NCBI GenBank assembly: GCA_963675785.1
Contig: OY776562.1
Coordinates: 3,136,001-3,200,000, forward strand
Direction of reading: 5' to 3'
Length of the DNA stretch: 64,000 nucleotides
Source of the DNA: Anaerolineae bacterium
GTDB taxonomy: Bacteria > Chloroflexota > Anaerolineae > UBA1429
In this document: positions 9,855-46,893 of the stretch, in pieces
Layout of the letters: every line of letters starts with the position of its first letter
Numbering within the stretch: the stretch's first letter is position 1
The notes under the pieces: generated by a model
What the model was told of the DNA's origin: nothing
Databases searched by the model: none
The model's input: the letters and a program-made list of their open reading frames with translations, nothing else
Program-made: the position numbers and the translations under genes

Positions 9855-10802
9855 TTGCGCAAAATCCTCAAATTCCTGCTCAACATAATCGTTGCTCTCA
9901 TCTTGATCCTGGCTGCTGCGGCTATTTTGTTAGCGGGTTATTCTGCAGTGATGGCGGGGAATTGGGAGCAGTATTCTCTGGATGAAAACGCTCAAGGCGG
10001 AGAATGGACTTGGATTGACGATCAACCCTACCACTATGAGACCTGGGGGCCCGATGATGGCCCGGTCATCGTTCTGATACATGGCGGTTATGTCGAAGGC
10101 TCCAAAACCTGGGAGAACAATGCCACCGACATCGCTCGTTCAGGCGTACGTGTGGTTGCTGTGGACCTTGCTGGCCTTGGCCTGTCTTCTCGCAATGTAG
10201 ACCAGGATTTCACGCTAACAGGGCAGGCGCAGCTTGTGGCTATGGTGCTGAACGAATTGCGAATCGTCAATGCTACGGTGGTTGGCCACGATTATGGCGC
10301 CGCAGTGGCATTGGAACTCGCCCAGATCCAGCCGCAATTCGTGGGCAGTATAGCACTCATAGCGCCGCAGCTCGATGCTACAGCCTGGCCTAGTTGGCGT
10401 AGGTGGTCTAGCATATCTTTTCTGCGTAACGGTTTTGCTTGGGCCTTGGATTGCGGGGGGCTGTTCTGGAAGAACAGAATCGCAAGCGAATTTGTCGATC
10501 CCTCGATTGCCGCCGATTATATCGAGACGCAGCGACCCATGACACAGATCGATGGCACAATGAATGCCTTGGTAGCCATTGCCCAGACGGAAGAGCCCGG
10601 CTTGAGGGAGCAATGGCAAGAGCTGGATTTGCCGATGATGGTTATCGTTGGCGATTCGGACCCAGAAATTGATGCGGACAAGATCGGCGATGAATTCCCG
10701 AACGCCGAGCTGCGTATCATCGAGAACGCTGGGCACATGCCGCAGGTAGAAGCCAGTACACAGGTCAACCGGCTGTTGGTTCAGTTCTCTTTGGAAGATT
10801 AA
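9855..10802 (+). CDS. Membrane-anchored alpha/beta hydrolase
   Basis: N-terminal TM helix; LIHG, GHDYGA (Asp nucleophile elbow), AGHMPQ. Confidence 0.85.
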   Translation: MRKILKFLLNIIVALILILAAAAILLAGYSAVMAGNWEQYSLDENAQGGEWTWIDDQPYHYETWGPDDGPVIVLIHGGYVEGSKTWENNATDIARSGVRVVAVDLAGLGLSSRNVDQDFTLTGQAQLVAMVLNELRIVNATVVGHDYGAAVALELAQIQPQFVGSIALIAPQLDATAWPSWRRWSSISFLRNGFAWALDCGGLFWKNRIASEFVDPSIAADYIETQRPMTQIDGTMNALVAIAQTEEPGLREQWQELDLPMMVIVGDSDPEIDADKIGDEFPNAELRIIENAGHMPQVEASTQVNRLLVQFSLED

Positions 10803-40067: not shown

Positions 40068-40100
40068 CTCCGCAACTGCGATATCAAGGTGGAGGTGCCC

Positions 40101-41153
40101 ATGTTTGGTTCGTTTGGTTTTGGTCTTGCTGGTATCCCTATGCTTTCCAATTCGGTGACGCGCTCCATTTCGGCAGAAAACCCGGATGGTTCAGTGGCGG
40201 GTGGCGCCCATGCCGAGCCTGACGAGCATTCAGCGGGTTCGTTGTTAGGGCGCGGCTGGAAGATTCGTCCTTGTATCACCTTGCCCGCCGGCTCGGTGAC
40301 TACCTTGGCCGATATCGAGGGGCCGGGCGTCATTCAGCACTTGTGGATCACCGTCAAACCTGCGGCCTATCGTTCTTGTGTGCTGCGTGTGTATTGGGAT
40401 GACGAGGCAGAGCCTTCCATCGAGACTCCCCTGGGAGACTTTTTCGCCAATGTCCATGGCATGCGCTACAACGTCAATTCGATGCCCATAACGGTCAACC
40501 CCTCTGGCGGATTCAACAGCTATTGGCCTATGCCTTTTCGTAAACATGCGCGTATCACCATCGAAAATGCCTATTGGGAGGATATTTCGGGCTTTTTCTA
40601 CCAGATCAATTATGCTTTGGGCGAGGTACCTGCGGATGCTGCCTATTTTCACGCCCAATGGCGACGTAGCACCACCTCGCGTGGTTACCCCGAGCATGTT
40701 CTGCTAGATGGTGTGCAGGGCCAGGGTCACTATGTGGGCACGGTGATTGGTTGGAATCAGTATTCCAACGGCTGGTGGGGTGAGGGAGAGGTCAAGTTCT
40801 ATATGGATGGTGATGGCGAGTTTCCCACCATCTGTGGCACGGGCACCGAGGATTATTTTGGCGGCGCTTGGTGCTTTGATGATGAGACTTATTCTACGCC
40901 CTTCCTGGGTTATCCCCTGTGGGACAAGCCAGAAGGCGGCGTTTCTCGCCATGGCCTCTATCGCTGGCATATCATGGATCCCATCCGCTTCCAGAGTGAT
41001 CTCAAGGTCACCATTCAGGCTCTTGGGTGGTGGTTGAACGGCAAGTACGAGCCGCTGGAAGATGATATTTGCTCTGTGGCCTATTGGTACCAGAGCGAAC
41101 CTCACGGAGCTTTCCCCGCTTTGCCCGATCTGGCTGGGCGTTGGCCTCGTTAA
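40101..41153 (+). CDS. GH172 (DUF2961) glycoside hydrolase
   Basis: SISAENP.G, GPG.IQHLW.T, PLGDFF, NSYWPMPF, WWGEGEVKFY.DG, GTGTEDYF. Confidence 0.9.
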   Translation: MFGSFGFGLAGIPMLSNSVTRSISAENPDGSVAGGAHAEPDEHSAGSLLGRGWKIRPCITLPAGSVTTLADIEGPGVIQHLWITVKPAAYRSCVLRVYWDDEAEPSIETPLGDFFANVHGMRYNVNSMPITVNPSGGFNSYWPMPFRKHARITIENAYWEDISGFFYQINYALGEVPADAAYFHAQWRRSTTSRGYPEHVLLDGVQGQGHYVGTVIGWNQYSNGWWGEGEVKFYMDGDGEFPTICGTGTEDYFGGAWCFDDETYSTPFLGYPLWDKPEGGVSRHGLYRWHIMDPIRFQSDLKVTIQALGWWLNGKYEPLEDDICSVAYWYQSEPHGAFPALPDLAGRWPR

Positions 41154-42035: not shown

Positions 42036-43439
42036 TTATTTAGATCGGATGATGCTCACCATATCGGATAGAAGATCGGTTACATCAAAGCTCTCCCAAT
42101 CACCACTGTCATCGCCAGCGTTGAATACTGCCATGCCTAGTACATAGGGATCACGCCGCAGTTCGTCGTCGTACCAGGAAAGCTGTTCGAGATACTGATA
42201 ATCTGTCATGGCATCTTTCCAGCCGCCAAAGGATAGGTCTTCTGTAAGGACGCCGCCATCAATGCCTGCTTCTGTAATGACCAACGGAATGACGAGGTTG
42301 GCGGGTTGGAGGTAATTATCGTACCAGATGCGATAACGCAGGGTTAGCGAACCGTAATCAGATCCCAGAGTTAACCCTGGCACACCAGCGCCAACGCCGC
42401 TCCACATATCGGGTGCGGAATATTCGTGCAGGGCCATGATGCCGTCATAGGATTGAGCTGTCTCAACGGCGGGCAGGAACTGGCCAAAGGTAGCTGGTTC
42501 GGGAACGCCCACAGAAAAATTGCCGATGGCAACTTTGAGCCCTAGCTCGGCCATGGCGATGACGCGCTCGGATTCAAATTGCGCATACCATGCCATGTCG
42601 GACTGGCTGCTGATCACTGGCTCGTTCCAGCCCAGCCAATAATCGACGGCGGGGTGTGAGAGATAGATTCCAGCGTTCTGGGCTACAAATTCTCGTGCCC
42701 GCTCTGTGGGGTCACCCTCGTAGGATTGATCACTCTCTGCCAACCGAGCCAGAGTAATAGTATCCGGAGAGGCTGCTTTTACGTCCGCTAGCCAGCCGAT
42801 ATCACCAACGGCAACAACGACACTGGGCTGGGCCTCTGTAACAAAGTCCATAATGGCAGGCGAATTGTTACGGGTGACATGGAGGCCAATCTTGCTGACG
42901 CCTGTGGGCTCATCCAGGGTGAGGGCTTCTTGCTGCATGTAATTGGCCATATCATAGGTAATCGCTACTTGCCAAACGGTGGTGGATCCCGGGGTAGAGC
43001 AGTCCATGAGAATAGTGCTCATCCCGTCGGCAATACTTATTTCAAGCTGATGACACCCGCCCTCAAGTGGGCCTTCAGTATACGTAAAGCAGACGCTGAC
43101 CGATTCGTCCGGCTCAACTGCGCCAGCAAACCATTCTTGCGATAGTTCCTCATCAGTCACGTATTCCGGGGTATAACGATCCAACACATGCAGCGATGGG
43201 ATAGACCAGGGGGTTGTATTGGTAACGGTTAGAATATAGTGGTGGGGCTGTCCGCGCAGCGAAGTAGCCTGTACAATGATGGCATAGTCCGTAGGGATTT
43301 CACCGATGGGGCCGGTATACAGCACCTCGGGATCGATGATCAGGGGATCATCGACTCTGGCTGAAACACTTGTTGGCGTTATTCCCATGATGATCAGAAC
43401 AGCGCAAAGGCTTGTAAGGATCGTCCAGCGTCTGTGCAT
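42036..43439 (-). CDS. Secreted protein: N-terminal beta-rich domain + clan GH-A-like TIM barrel glycoside hydrolase
   Basis: Signal peptide; GWNEP (acid/base), ALHEY, VITEAG (nucleophile). Confidence 0.7.
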   Translation of the reverse strand: MHRRWTILTSLCAVLIIMGITPTSVSARVDDPLIIDPEVLYTGPIGEIPTDYAIIVQATSLRGQPHHYILTVTNTTPWSIPSLHVLDRYTPEYVTDEELSQEWFAGAVEPDESVSVCFTYTEGPLEGGCHQLEISIADGMSTILMDCSTPGSTTVWQVAITYDMANYMQQEALTLDEPTGVSKIGLHVTRNNSPAIMDFVTEAQPSVVVAVGDIGWLADVKAASPDTITLARLAESDQSYEGDPTERAREFVAQNAGIYLSHPAVDYWLGWNEPVISSQSDMAWYAQFESERVIAMAELGLKVAIGNFSVGVPEPATFGQFLPAVETAQSYDGIMALHEYSAPDMWSGVGAGVPGLTLGSDYGSLTLRYRIWYDNYLQPANLVIPLVITEAGIDGGVLTEDLSFGGWKDAMTDYQYLEQLSWYDDELRRDPYVLGMAVFNAGDDSGDWESFDVTDLLSDMVSIIRSK

Positions 43440-43540
43440 CAGTCCCTCTGCATGCCATCGTACACTCTTTATATCAATTATACTCATAGGATACAACATA
43501 TGCCAGAGGTTTTCGTAAATCCCGAATAAATGGCCGGGGG

Positions 43541-43570
43541 TTGACGTTTCTTACCCCAACTTTCTATAAT
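43541..43570 (+). promoter_or_regulatory. sigma70-type promoter for the CHAT-ATPase gene
   Basis: TTGACG-N18-TATAAT. Confidence 0.7.
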
Positions 43571-43618
43571 GTACCATGCGCTGTTGTGCGCTCTTGGCTA
43601 GACTGGGGTGACATCCGA

Positions 43619-46312
43619 ATGGATTACTTGAGTTTTGACCTTCGACTTGGAGATTGGGATAGCAAATCAGGCCAGGGTATGGCCGAAGTACTCCAGTCCC
43701 CTGCTGGCGAAGGGCCCCGATATCCTTTCAAATTGGACGTTGATATCGATCGCATCGCCAAGGCCAATCAATATTCAACCTCGGACGCGGCCAGTTTGGG
43801 CCGACGTCTTTCTATGGAGATCTTTGCTCAGCAGAGTCAAACGCTTTGGTATGAGAGCTATCAGATTGCCCGCGAACGCGGCCGTGGTTTACGTTTGAGA
43901 TTGCATATTGATTCCTGGGAACTCTCGCGGCTTCCCTGGGAATTTTTGCATGATGCGCGCCGTGGCGATTTTTTGGTGTTCGATCCCCTTGTCTCGGTGG
44001 TGCGATATCTCCGACTGTATGCGTCGCCGCCGGCTTTGCGGCAGGGGCAGCGACTCAAACTCTTGGCTGTGGCGGCATCGCCCAAAGATCAAGCCCAGCT
44101 CGATTGGCGCAAAGAGTTCTCTGTTCTCAAAGAGGCTCTTGATGGCTTGGTCAAGACCCGAAGTGTAGATCTAGCCTTTTGTGAGGGCGCCACACGAGAG
44201 GCGTTGCATATGGCGCTGGCTGAGCACAAGCCCGATGTGGTGCATTATGTGGGCCATGGCGCTTATTCCACCGAACGCGATTTGGGTGTGCTGCTGCTTC
44301 AAGATGAAAAGGGTGGCAGTGTGCCCGTCACTGCCCACGATGCTGCCAGATTATTCCGCCATTACGGGGTGAACCTCGTTTTCCTCAACGCCTGCGAGAC
44401 GGCTCGGGGTAGTTGGGCCGGGTTAGCGCCCGCGCTCGTCCGCCGCGAGATCCCTGCTGTGCTGGCTATGCAGTGGCCGGTAGAGGATCGGGCGGCTATA
44501 CGTTTTTCACGCCATTTTTATCAGGCTTTGGCTTCTGGTAGGACTATCGACGAGTGCGTCTCTGAAGGCCGCGTGGGTGCCGCCGCTGGTGGCAGCGATG
44601 CCATGGCCTGGGCCGCACCTGTGCTGTTCCTGCGCTCCGGCAGTGGTCGCCTGTGGTCTTCGGAGAATGAGGCTGTTGCTGCGGGGCAGGCAACCACCGG
44701 TTCGGCGGTCTATACGGGCCAGGATCCCTGTTTCAAAACGCACGGCCCCCTCAATGCCGCTGATACCGATGTAATGATTGATCGCCCGGAATTGCGGCGA
44801 GCGCTCAAACTCGCCCAGCAACCGTCTATTACCCAGTACGTAGCCATACTCAGTGCCCGGCAGATGGGCAAGACGACGCTGTTGTTCCGTTTGATGGAAT
44901 TGCTCAAGGGGCGTTATCCTTGCGCGTTTGTGGATTTGGCAACCATGCGCGACCAAGGATCCGGCGCTTGCTTTCGTTATGTGGCTGAGCAAATCGCTAC
45001 TGCCCTCAAAACCAGCCCTTGGGCCGGGAGTCGCTTGCCCAATGCTAGCCAGGTGAGTGATTCGGTGGGGCTTGTTGGCTTTCTCGCCGACTTGGCTTCG
45101 TGTGTAACCAGCGATCGCCTGATTGTGATGGTGGACGAAGTTGGGGCGCTCAATTCCGAGGCCTCGGATGCGCTTTTCAATGCACTGCGCTCAGTGTTCA
45201 CACAGGGACGTGGTCCCAATCCGCGGCTGGCGCGTTACCTGTTCTACTTTGGTGGTGCTGTAGATCTCTATACGTTGACCTATGGCAGTAATTCACCGCT
45301 CAATATTTGCGAAAAAATCTATTTGAGCGAGTTTTCTCGCACGGATGTGGATCGGCTGGTGGGCGTTTTTCATCGCTTGAACGTTAGCGTGCCCGACGGA
45401 ATAAGTGAGCGGATTTTTTACTATACGGCTGGCCACCCTTATCTTACTATGCGTATGTGTGCCCTGCTACATAGCTATGGCTCCAACCAGTTGAGCATTG
45501 CCCAGGTGGATACTGCTGCAGAAGAAATGATCGTGGATGACGACAACATTCACCATCTGGTGCGCGAATTGGATCGACGCCCTATGGAGCGGCGCCAGTT
45601 GGCTCGCATTGCCATGGACGGCGAGGCCGTGCCGTTTTCTCGCAATAACCCGGTGCTGGCTTCGCTAGAGATGCTAGGCGCCCTGAGCCCGGCACAACCA
45701 GCAGCGATGCGTAACAGACTTTATGAGCGGGCCGCAAAGCAATATTTGGCTCAGCAAACGCCCGATTGGCGTAGCGGCGGTGTGCCGCTCAAGCGGCAAG
45801 AGGGCGTAAAGCAAGGCGCTCAATATGAGGTTATTGCCCGGCTCCGTTTCGATGCTGAGCAAAAGGGCGGCGATACCTGGGTAGAATACATCAGAGCGCT
45901 CTTCCGGCTGGTGCCAGCACTCTCTCTTTATACGAATGTGCGCGCTGGCAATGCGCGCTTTGCCGCGGTGCTGGCTGTCAACGCTGAGGAGACGGGCACA
46001 TACTGGCAAGCTTTTGAACCTGCCATTCCCGTAGTAAGACTCGATTTGAGCAAGGGGCATTCAGAACTCAACCTGCAAGACATATTCAAAAGTGCACGTG
46101 CAAGCCGTATCAAACTTGTGGTGGTGATGCTGGTGGGCGGCGGCGAACGCACTCAGGAAATCATCGAGACCGTCTCTGGCACCAAGGATGGTCTTTCTGT
46201 AGCTGTGCTGGATGATAATAGCCTGGGCCAATTGTTGACCGAGCATGGAGATCTAGAGTTGTTGCTTAAACGGCGCATCCTTGAAGCCCGCCTTCGGTCC
46301 CTTTCGGGCTAA
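43619..46312 (+). CDS. CHAT (caspase-like) protease + STAND/AAA_35-like ATPase + degenerate restriction-endonuclease-like domain
   Basis: LPWEFL, HYVGHG, FLNAC, AMQW, WAAPVLF; Walker A SARQMGKT, Walker B VMVDE, TAGHPYL; C-terminal call is by resemblance only. Confidence 0.85.
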   Translation: MDYLSFDLRLGDWDSKSGQGMAEVLQSPAGEGPRYPFKLDVDIDRIAKANQYSTSDAASLGRRLSMEIFAQQSQTLWYESYQIARERGRGLRLRLHIDSWELSRLPWEFLHDARRGDFLVFDPLVSVVRYLRLYASPPALRQGQRLKLLAVAASPKDQAQLDWRKEFSVLKEALDGLVKTRSVDLAFCEGATREALHMALAEHKPDVVHYVGHGAYSTERDLGVLLLQDEKGGSVPVTAHDAARLFRHYGVNLVFLNACETARGSWAGLAPALVRREIPAVLAMQWPVEDRAAIRFSRHFYQALASGRTIDECVSEGRVGAAAGGSDAMAWAAPVLFLRSGSGRLWSSENEAVAAGQATTGSAVYTGQDPCFKTHGPLNAADTDVMIDRPELRRALKLAQQPSITQYVAILSARQMGKTTLLFRLMELLKGRYPCAFVDLATMRDQGSGACFRYVAEQIATALKTSPWAGSRLPNASQVSDSVGLVGFLADLASCVTSDRLIVMVDEVGALNSEASDALFNALRSVFTQGRGPNPRLARYLFYFGGAVDLYTLTYGSNSPLNICEKIYLSEFSRTDVDRLVGVFHRLNVSVPDGISERIFYYTAGHPYLTMRMCALLHSYGSNQLSIAQVDTAAEEMIVDDDNIHHLVRELDRRPMERRQLARIAMDGEAVPFSRNNPVLASLEMLGALSPAQPAAMRNRLYERAAKQYLAQQTPDWRSGGVPLKRQEGVKQGAQYEVIARLRFDAEQKGGDTWVEYIRALFRLVPALSLYTNVRAGNARFAAVLAVNAEETGTYWQAFEPAIPVVRLDLSKGHSELNLQDIFKSARASRIKLVVVMLVGGGERTQEIIETVSGTKDGLSVAVLDDNSLGQLLTEHGDLELLLKRRILEARLRSLSG

Positions 46313-46343: not shown

Positions 46344-46372
46344 TTGACAGGTACTCCTCTCTGGGCTATACT
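46344..46372 (+). promoter_or_regulatory. tRNA promoter
   Basis: TTGACA-N17-TATACT. Confidence 0.8.
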
Positions 46373-46404: not shown

Positions 46405-46487
46405 GGAGGGATGGCAGAGCGGTCGAATGCGGCGGTCTTGAAAACCGTTGATCGAGAGATCCGGGGGTTCGAATCCCTCTCCCTCCG
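46405..46487 (+). tRNA. tRNA-Ser(TGA)
   Basis: Acceptor GGAGGGA/TCCCTCC, anticodon loop CT-TGA-AA, long variable arm, TTCGAAT. Confidence 0.95.
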
Positions 46488-46510
46488 CCTTAAATCCTAA
46501 ATATTTGTTG

Positions 46511-46600
46511 GGGGAGGTGCCGGAGTGGACGAACGGGGCCGCCTGCTAAGCGGTTGTAGGGGGACGACCTCTACCCAGGGTTCGAATCCCTGCCTCCCCG
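46511..46600 (+). tRNA. tRNA-Ser(GCT)
   Basis: Acceptor GGGGAGG/CCTCCCC, CT-GCT-AA, long variable arm. Confidence 0.95.
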
Positions 46601-46675
46601 CTGTAAATGTTTGTTGTCTGCACGCGTCTTATTTTGTCTCAGAAGCGGTGCGTGCTATAATGCTTTTCGTTGTTA

Positions 46676-46749
46676 GCGCCCGTACCTCAATTGGATAGAG
46701 GACCGGTCTACGAAACCGTCTGTTGGGCGTTCGAGCCGCCCCGGGCGCA
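46676..46749 (+). tRNA. tRNA-Arg(ACG)
   Basis: Acceptor GCGCCCG/CGGGCGC, CT-ACG-AA, T arm GGGCG-TTCGAGC-CGCCC; extended -10 TGCTATAAT upstream. Confidence 0.92.
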
Positions 46750-46751
46750 CT

Positions 46752-46777
46752 GAAGCACTACCGTATGGTAGTGCTTC
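46752..46777 (+). terminator. Stem-loop/terminator after tRNA-Arg(ACG)
   Basis: GAAGCACTACC-GTAT-GGTAGTGCTTC then TTGCTTT. Confidence 0.65.
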
Positions 46778-46819
46778 TTGCTTTGGTAACGCTATGTTTC
46801 TATGGTATAGTTCACTTAT

Positions 46820-46891
46820 GCCCCCTTAGCTCAGTGGATAGAGCACTGGCCTCCGGAGCCAGGGGCAGGCGTTCGACCCGCCTAGGGGGTA
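46820..46891 (+). tRNA. tRNA-Arg(CCG)
   Basis: Acceptor GCCCCCT/AGGGGGT, CTGGC-CT-CCG-GA-GCCAG, TTCGACC. Confidence 0.95.
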
Positions 46892-46893
46892 CT

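Follow-up and report, generated by a model that had tools for sequence, protein, structure and literature searches.

Nucleoside triphosphatases (NTPases) of the STAND class are recognized, among other features, by a GxP motif in their helical domain, and are usually, if not universally, followed by a repeat-type sensor made of TPR, WD40 or LRR units. In the Avs proteins the C-terminal sensors are TPR-like, and in the apoptosome the protease is a separate protein that is recruited through CARD domains. As presented in the main accounts of Kaur et al. (2020, PMC7159879; 2021, PMC8195603), the conflict systems of multicellular bacteria make use of STAND NTPases, caspase-fold peptidases and restriction endonuclease (REase) effectors, together with many catalytically inactive enzyme domains, and the EACC1-caspase two-gene system was defined in the earlier of these accounts. 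Short, fast-evolving C-terminal sensor domains have been proposed in bacterial NACHT proteins (Kibby et al., bioRxiv 10.1101/2022.07.19.500537), and HetF of Anabaena has been reported to be a CHAT protease acting on PatU3 and a component of the divisome (PMC9457339, PMC8406250). The protein considered here is encoded in a stretch of 64,000 nucleotides, hereafter the window, from an Anaerolineae bacterium of the lineage UBA1429 (assembly GCA_963675785.1, contig OY776562.1, positions 3,136,001 to 3,200,000 of the forward strand), where an original prediction made from the letters alone had noticed a CHAT protease, a STAND ATPase and a seemingly inactive nuclease in one chain. It is indeed of the NLR-like effector-NTPase kind, in a three-domain form that ends in a dead nuclease tail. 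No description of such a CHAT / STAND NTPase / dead nuclease family was found in the literature searched, including the cited passages of Kaur et al. and Kibby et al. The gene and its modules are the following:

43619..46312, + strand: coding sequence of the CHAT / AAA_35 NTPase / dead Mrr_cat protein, stop codon included, 897 residues
43868..44626, + strand: CHAT caspase-like protease domain, residues 84-336 (Pfam PF12770, E 1.8e-34, 120 bits against a cut-off of 24)
44711..45793, + strand: STAND-type NTPase module, residues 365-725, with nucleotide-binding, helical and winged-helix parts
45791..46309, + strand: C-terminal, catalytically dead PD-(D/E)xK domain derived from Mrr_cat, residues 725-897, with V755, A781, V805 and L807 in the catalytic columns

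A single open frame on the + strand (43541-46312) holds the gene, and its start was assigned to the ATG at 43619 from the alignment of homologues, because all 33 of them begin at this point with the common N-terminus M-D/E-Y-L-S-F (M-D-Y-L-S-F in the window). The caspase-type dyad had been read from the sequence with exact coordinates, with His213 in the motif HYVGHG (44255-44257) and Cys259 in FLNAC (44393-44395). Both residues are invariant in the 34 aligned full-length sequences, a conservation from which the CHAT domain is predicted to be an intact protease. The Walker A, Walker B and GHP motifs, also read as intact, correspond to G417-K418-T419-T420, D506-E507 and G605-H606-P607; K418, T419, D506 and the whole GHP do not vary among the same 34 sequences, and GKTT and DE are overall invariant or nearly so. 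Pfam AAA_35 (PF14516) covers residues 381-671 with 39.1 bits against a cut-off of 27, a score that reaches 73 bits in homologues, and an AlphaFold2 model of residues 365-725 obtained from 41 sequences has a predicted local distance difference test score (pLDDT) of 90.3. According to this model, the segment is the nucleotide-binding, helical and winged-helix module of STAND/ORC-type switches, so that the Walker motifs, the order of the three parts and the GxP motif, here in the form GHP, are all found as in STAND proteins. No match to the NACHT profile was obtained at E up to 1. At the same threshold TPR, WD40 or any other repeat family of Pfam is missing from the protein, as had been noticed before, and none of the proteins of 1571-4485 residues covers more than 49% of the query, which leaves no long orthologue among them. 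Just before the NTPase module lies a motif F-x-T-x-G-P-L (residues 372-378, 44732-44752), invariant in 34 of 34 sequences, which reads FKTHGPL in the window (consensus FKTRGPL) and for which the model shows no regular secondary structure.

The C-terminal domain had been compared with the layout of Mrr-like nucleases, and this resemblance is real. Even with E values up to 10, no Pfam family is matched by the window protein's own tail (residues 725-897), but two members of its family pass the cut-off of 21 bits for Mrr_cat (Pfam PF04471), with 26.1 bits for the tail of L029 and 28.7 bits for P0019. A profile of 28 family tails retrieved 207 proteins at E up to 0.001 among 1.84 billion representatives, and when 30 of these were sampled, Mrr_cat was recognised in 21 at E up to 0.001, with 19 scores above the cut-off; six of the 21 also have a NACHT match in front, in proteins of 612-641 residues. 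Moreover, the tail aligns column by column with stand-alone Mrr_cat proteins, and its fold is predicted from the family alignment with a pLDDT of 89.8. Altogether, the tail is a PD-(D/E)xK fold of the Mrr type. Searches against structures contributed little: no Foldseek match to the tail reached an E value of 0.001, RPB5, McrC and restriction enzymes appearing as weak rows only, and the tail profile met only designed proteins and Mediator subunit 8 among the chain sequences of the PDB, which is uninformative. None of the 28 family tails matches NA-iREase1 (Pfam PF22722) at E up to 10, in a search where HMMER filters drop weak matches and which may not have included this model; the term 'iREase' is absent from the text of PMC8195603.

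In the tail, the four catalytic columns (E, D, E and K) are occupied by V, A, V and L in the window protein, with none of the four residues kept; the original prediction had stated such a replacement for the D and ExK positions. The intact E-D-E-K tetrad occurs in one of the 34 full-length family members (P0019; alignment A1), where E-D-E-R and E-N-E-K are found once each, and in none of the 28 family tails taken from genomes (alignment A2), two of which read E-D-E-R. All 28 relatives added from outside the family keep E-D-E-K, 14 of them being proteins of about 600-660 residues, and so do six of the eight members of a stand-alone Mrr_cat outgroup (alignment A3), the other two reading E-D-Q-K. 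At the level of sequence, the loss of the catalytic residues is thus confirmed and the domain counts as catalytically dead. The window protein also sits on a long end branch (0.64, compared with 0.15-0.30 for its five nearest relatives), and its tetrad is the most degraded of all the sequences examined. Two more open reading frames of the same genome carry Mrr_cat over the cut-off (C1:1457583-1457846 and 1973819-1973980, in open frames of 561 and 790 residues), and these do not belong to the tail subfamily, as the only gene that the tail profile matches in that genome is its own.

Short forms of about 720-760 residues (open frames of 731-796 residues) end right after the winged helix. In a tree built from the CHAT and NTPase columns of 46 rows they stand at four or more separate positions, the minimum being four state changes. 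These short forms are complete genes with other genes after them, their CHAT and NTPase parts stayed conserved, and whole genera are made of them (5/5 in g12, 3/3 in g11, and also g18), most genera retaining the tail. Small open reading frames located 3' of the short forms were considered as a split-off tail and discarded, since the same frames also follow full-length forms (L009, L010, L012 and L032). In L002, the C-terminal end of the CHAT-family gene (about 10600-10670) departs from all relatives over its last 40 or so residues, which suggests a frameshift or an assembly error. Where the domain is present it is the least conserved of the three parts, with a mean pairwise identity of 0.38 versus 0.61-0.62 for the CHAT and NTPase parts. 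The ratio of nonsynonymous to synonymous substitution rates (dN/dS, Nei-Gojobori), on the other hand, lies between 0.07 and 0.51 for the tail in all 16 close pairs, compared with 0.03-0.19 for CHAT and 0.04-0.25 for the NTPase, in pairs that are not independent and with dS above 1 in about half of them. Such values suggest that the tail is under purifying selection, and at the coarse resolution of these pairs nothing points to positive selection. W796 is invariant, as are, completely or nearly, several positions of the core and of the C-terminal helix; conserved positions lie mainly in the hydrophobic core and in that helix, with no conserved basic surface. The tails are acidic, with a median isoelectric point (pI) of 5.1 and a median charge of -5, the window's own tail having a pI of 7.0.

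These data bear directly on the view of the tail as a functionless relic, in which an ancestral NTPase-nuclease effector would have gained, or already had, the CHAT domain, making the nuclease redundant and leaving it to decay neutrally towards loss. The repeated loss of the whole domain, its low conservation and the 29 different tetrad patterns among 34 family sequences, which indicate that decay took many routes, all fit this scenario, as does the fact that the domains of outsiders are intact nucleases, many of them C-terminal to STAND NTPases. A neutrally decaying domain, however, is hard to reconcile with a dN/dS that never comes near 1 in any of the 16 pairs, with a fold predicted at high confidence, with the constancy of W796 and its companions, or with the survival of the domain in most genera, and we consider this explanation very unlikely. 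The pattern rather suggests a maintained non-catalytic accessory part that lineages can dispense with: it would not be essential because it was lost in at least four places of the family tree. In this line, the family offers a clean case of a restriction-nuclease domain without catalysis that is yet still selected, with tail-less orthologues as natural deletion controls.

The original prediction had gone further and seen in the dead nuclease a nucleic-acid sensor that triggers the protease. This proposal fared badly in view of the repeated loss of the domain, the absence of a conserved basic surface in tails of such low pI, and the position of the same domain in outsiders, where it is an intact nuclease directly after the STAND NTPase and would therefore seem to occupy an effector slot and not a sensor slot. 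The nearest paralogous NTPases (43% identity) are either stand-alone or followed by an unrelated, weakly TIR-like tail.

The distribution of the gene differs from what could be expected for a defence gene. The genome of the window (3.2 Mb in one contig) has one copy, which is both its only CHAT gene and its only AAA_35 gene. Within the order, which consists of a single family, a match at E up to 1e-50 is present in 40 of 42 genomes and in 23 of 24 genera. Where a genome gave two matches, these are fragments that lie on separate contigs or adjoin each other within a single frame, and the completeness of the two match-less genomes is 94% and 95%. When 401 genomes of the class were sampled evenly, the full-length protein was matched only in the window's own family (15/17), and six genomes of other families match the NTPase part alone. 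Among the window and 46 related loci, the neighbours include a class II lysyl/aspartyl-type tRNA synthetase, GreA, ribose-5-phosphate isomerase (rpiA), an AIR-synthase-like protein, the CCA-adding enzyme, glutamate-5-kinase-like and aldehyde-dehydrogenase-like (proA/proB-like) proteins and a 2-oxoacid dehydrogenase, all of them housekeeping genes. Identity to the window protein (40-55%) rises with that of the lysyl-type tRNA synthetase (65-72%), with a Spearman coefficient of 0.59 over 31 genomes, taken in a narrow range and from related genomes that are not independent. None of 76 matching plasmid records covers 80% of the protein, nor does any phage record, where a single partial, CHAT-only match was obtained. 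Judging from these comparisons, the gene is probably a core gene of one Anaerolineae family, kept as a single copy and passed on by vertical descent. The survey of homologues that had been called for thus found the protein nearly everywhere in the order, but not always with its tail, which the short forms have lost, and not with its tRNA neighbourhood, which is not shared.

An anti-phage function is the alternative to be weighed here. As an abortive-infection protein of the Avs or bNACHT type, the dead nuclease fold would bind foreign DNA or RNA, the NTPase would then oligomerise and the protease become active. The layout of effector, NTPase and C-terminal domain is the expected one, and the NTPase fold resembles that of NLRs and EfAvs5; the tail is the fastest-evolving part of the protein, as would suit the short C-terminal sensors proposed for bacterial NACHT proteins, and Pfam holds a family called NACHT-associated inactive REase. 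Moreover, a cyanobacterial CHAT + AAA_35 relative is plasmid-borne, with an integrase and a toxin-antitoxin pair next to it. Against this, a sensor would hardly be lost four times or more from an otherwise conserved protein, nor is an acidic tail with conservation mostly in its hydrophobic core, and with dN/dS below 1 in 16 of 16 pairs, what such a model predicts. Defence genes are patchy and island-borne, whereas this one is single-copy, surrounded by housekeeping genes and shared by 40 of the 42 genomes in the order, and in PADLOC, the check proposed for the defence idea, no defence model fits beyond the CHAT part. We therefore regard the anti-phage explanation as unlikely. Of the defence or signalling role contemplated originally, it is the typical defence role that has become doubtful; in sum, the observation on which the prediction was based is confirmed and its interpretation is partly supported, namely as to the Mrr-type fold, the lost catalytic residues and the general NLR-like build.

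A core gene would also suit a housekeeping protease of division or differentiation in filamentous bacteria, similar to HetF, in which the NTPase is merely a scaffold. HetF (NF045509, an equivalog) is in fact the only NCBIfam match of the protein, and the role of Anabaena HetF on PatU3 and in the divisome provides a precedent. Nevertheless, the match reaches 97.1 bits for a cut-off of 1200 and extends over the CHAT part only, and the invariant Walker A, Walker B and GHP motifs argue for an active switch instead of a scaffold. Since, in addition, the related loci contain no division gene as a conserved neighbour, and no observation ties the protein to the divisome, this alternative seems most improbable.

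The reading that we prefer, to which a probability of about 0.5 can be assigned, is that of an NTP-switched, oligomerisation-activated, single-chain protease with a non-catalytic accessory domain, encoded by a lineage core gene whose role is more likely endogenous. It builds on the domain identities, the intact motifs of protease and NTPase, the dead nuclease site, the distribution, the synteny and the pattern of selection described above. By analogy with STAND and NLR proteins, the central AAA_35 NTPase would be kept off in an ADP state until a trigger leads it to bind ATP and oligomerise, and the oligomer would gather the N-terminal CHAT domains, which might then cleave target proteins of the cell in trans. 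Once a nuclease of the Mrr type, and presumably unable to cut DNA any longer, the C-terminal domain may have been kept as an accessory module, most likely as a protein-contact or regulatory surface, either auto-inhibitory or tuning the oligomer, that would aid the switch without being essential to it. The cellular role could be a regulated proteolysis that acts under stress, in cell death or while filaments develop. An endogenous role is favoured over a mobile anti-phage one because the gene is single-copy, nearly universal in its family and placed among housekeeping genes. Bacterial NLR-like effector-NTPase proteins are usually patchy, mobile defence genes, and one copy per genome is kept here across a family; it therefore looks as if the module had been recruited to a fixed function in the cell.

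Several points weigh against this preferred reading. Oligomerisation, the activation mechanism and the substrates are drawn from analogy, and the biological role too is inferred. The tail evolves faster than the rest of the protein, as the sensors of immune NLRs do, and the short forms imply that neither repeats nor tail are needed. No conserved partner or substrate gene was found in the related loci, and the related CHAT + AAA_35 gene of Tolypothrix stands in a context of the conflict type, next to an integrase and a toxin-antitoxin pair. Finally, the distribution rests on genomes that are mostly in many contigs, with both match-less genomes at 94-95% completeness, and a near-universal presence is also compatible with a fixed immune role.

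A bolder proposal, quite unlikely in our estimation, is that a whole bacterial family might have fixed a one-chain 'apoptosome', an NLR-type switch with its own caspase-like protease, for programmed cell death or differentiation in filaments, the dead nuclease domain reading an internal state (for instance a partner protein, or nucleic acid that is damaged or foreign) to set the threshold. If this were true, the long and short forms found in nature would already provide an experiment on the workings of a threshold domain. The functional analogue is the apoptosome formed by Apaf-1/CED-4 with caspase-9/CED-3, from which the window protein differs in having the protease fused.

Comparison with proteins of other builds delimits the family further. 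Close in architecture are cyanobacterial proteins with CHAT followed by AAA_35, of about 710 residues and thus like the short Anaerolineae forms. An example is the uncharacterised WP_167727962.1 from a plasmid of Tolypothrix sp. PCC 7910, annotated as 'AAA-like domain-containing protein', which in tblastn covers residues 97-712 with 25.6% identity, but is plasmid-borne and devoid of the C-terminal nuclease-like domain. On that plasmid (L048, 3725-8380) the CHAT + AAA_35 gene (709 residues) adjoins an AAA_35 + GUN4 gene (837 residues), near a tyrosine recombinase/integrase and a ParDE pair, and the two adjoining genes are likely a conflict-system pair. Proteins of about 600-640 residues with a STAND NTPase (NACHT or nSTAND1) directly followed by Mrr_cat, without repeats, share with the family the Mrr_cat subfamily and its conserved Trp; they differ in their intact E-D-E-K, in the lack of CHAT and in an NTPase only distantly alike (hhalign probability 74%). 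In a language-model atlas, whose results are leads only, residues 365-897 fall near clusters of about 520-610 residues in which a nuclease-fold tail is joined to an NTPase of the STAND or AAA_35 type; Mrr_cat, nSTAND1 and 'NA-iREase1' are found in one of these clusters.

The anti-phage Avs/AVAST and bNACHT proteins have in common with the window protein an N-terminal effector and a central STAND NTPase, of a fold that resembles in our case both EfAvs5 and eukaryotic NLRs, as well as the idea of small C-terminal sensor domains. The window protein lacks their TPR, LRR or WD40 sensor repeats and has a core-gene instead of a patchy distribution. The Avs and NACHT models of PADLOC do not match it, and in PADLOC-DB 2.0 there is no match to the whole architecture, only partial ones to the CHAT part (SAVED_CHAT at residues 175-341, BovA at 183-317) and to a P-loop fragment. 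A search among proteins longer than 1570 residues retrieved the tripartite CHAT-nSTAND1-WD40 proteins (1600-1900 residues) and an AAA_35-TPR-CHAT protein of Chloroflexota (P0287). Both also join a CHAT protease to a STAND NTPase in multicellular bacteria, but with long repeat sensors, another NTPase family or another domain order, and they match over only 27-49% of the query. The archaeal ATPases PABY2304 (2qen) and SSO1545 (2fna), which are reportedly counted among the STAND NTPases in the scheme of Leipe et al. from 2004, are stand-alone and without effector domains. The EACC1-caspase layout, with a 5' co-directional gene for a small EACC1 protein with a single transmembrane segment, is absent from the locus. 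In four other Anaerolineae loci (L039, L040, L042 and L044) an operon encodes an nSTAND1-type NTPase protein of 677-1278 residues followed by an AAA_35 NTPase of 545-568 residues; one of the nSTAND1-type proteins has BNR/sortilin repeats, and in L042 a Ser/Thr kinase lies upstream. No paralogue is closer to the NTPase of the window protein than this one of 545-568 residues, which has a weak TIR-like tail in three of the four loci. The tail of the 545-residue paralogues was considered as a homologue of the Mrr-type tail and rejected (hhalign probability 0.1%), the weak TIR-like match passing the cut-off in one of three.

The surroundings of the gene in the window comprise the following features:

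43541..43570, + strand: sigma-70-like promoter match, TTGACG-18 nucleotides-TATAAT, 11 of 12 hexamer positions, a consensus match only
42036-43499, - strand: upstream gene of 487 residues, divergent from the CHAT gene, with 119 base pairs between both
46405-46892, + strand: four tRNA genes (Ser-tga, Ser-gct, Arg-acg, Arg-ccg) downstream of the CHAT gene
46344-46372, + strand: promoter-like site of the tRNA cluster, separate from that of the CHAT gene

The promoter-like match ends 49 nucleotides 5' of the start codon, so that the own promoter ascribed to the gene is present as a match and as a promoter is putative. No co-directional partner adjoins the gene in the window, which agrees with the earlier statement that no substrate gene is adjacent. 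Because the upstream gene is divergent and the downstream tRNA genes have a promoter-like site of their own, the CHAT gene looks monocistronic. Its G+C content is similar to that of the window around it (0.575 for 44001-46000), and no integrase or defence gene was seen beside it, at the locus or among its neighbours. The adjacent tRNA cluster had been given as a feature of the locus, and this adjacency is incidental: of the 34 related loci scanned, only two have a Ser/Ser/Arg cluster downstream, 3.7 and 4.6 kb away. A tRNA-linked integration was rejected for the same rarity near the gene (2/34 other loci), together with the G+C content and the lack of a nearby integrase. The 487-residue upstream gene was likewise discarded as substrate or partner, given that it is divergent, that its product looks secreted and glycosidase-like, and that it is found in only 12 loci of one subclade, in a synteny that is otherwise conserved. 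Its protein has an N-terminal hydrophobic segment, the glycoside-hydrolase-like motifs WNEP and ITEAG and no Pfam match, and the gene adjoins a DUF2961 gene (40089-41153). Within the tRNA cluster, a terminator-like hairpin (46752-46777) lies between the two Arg tRNA genes and is followed by a promoter-like site at 46783-46811.

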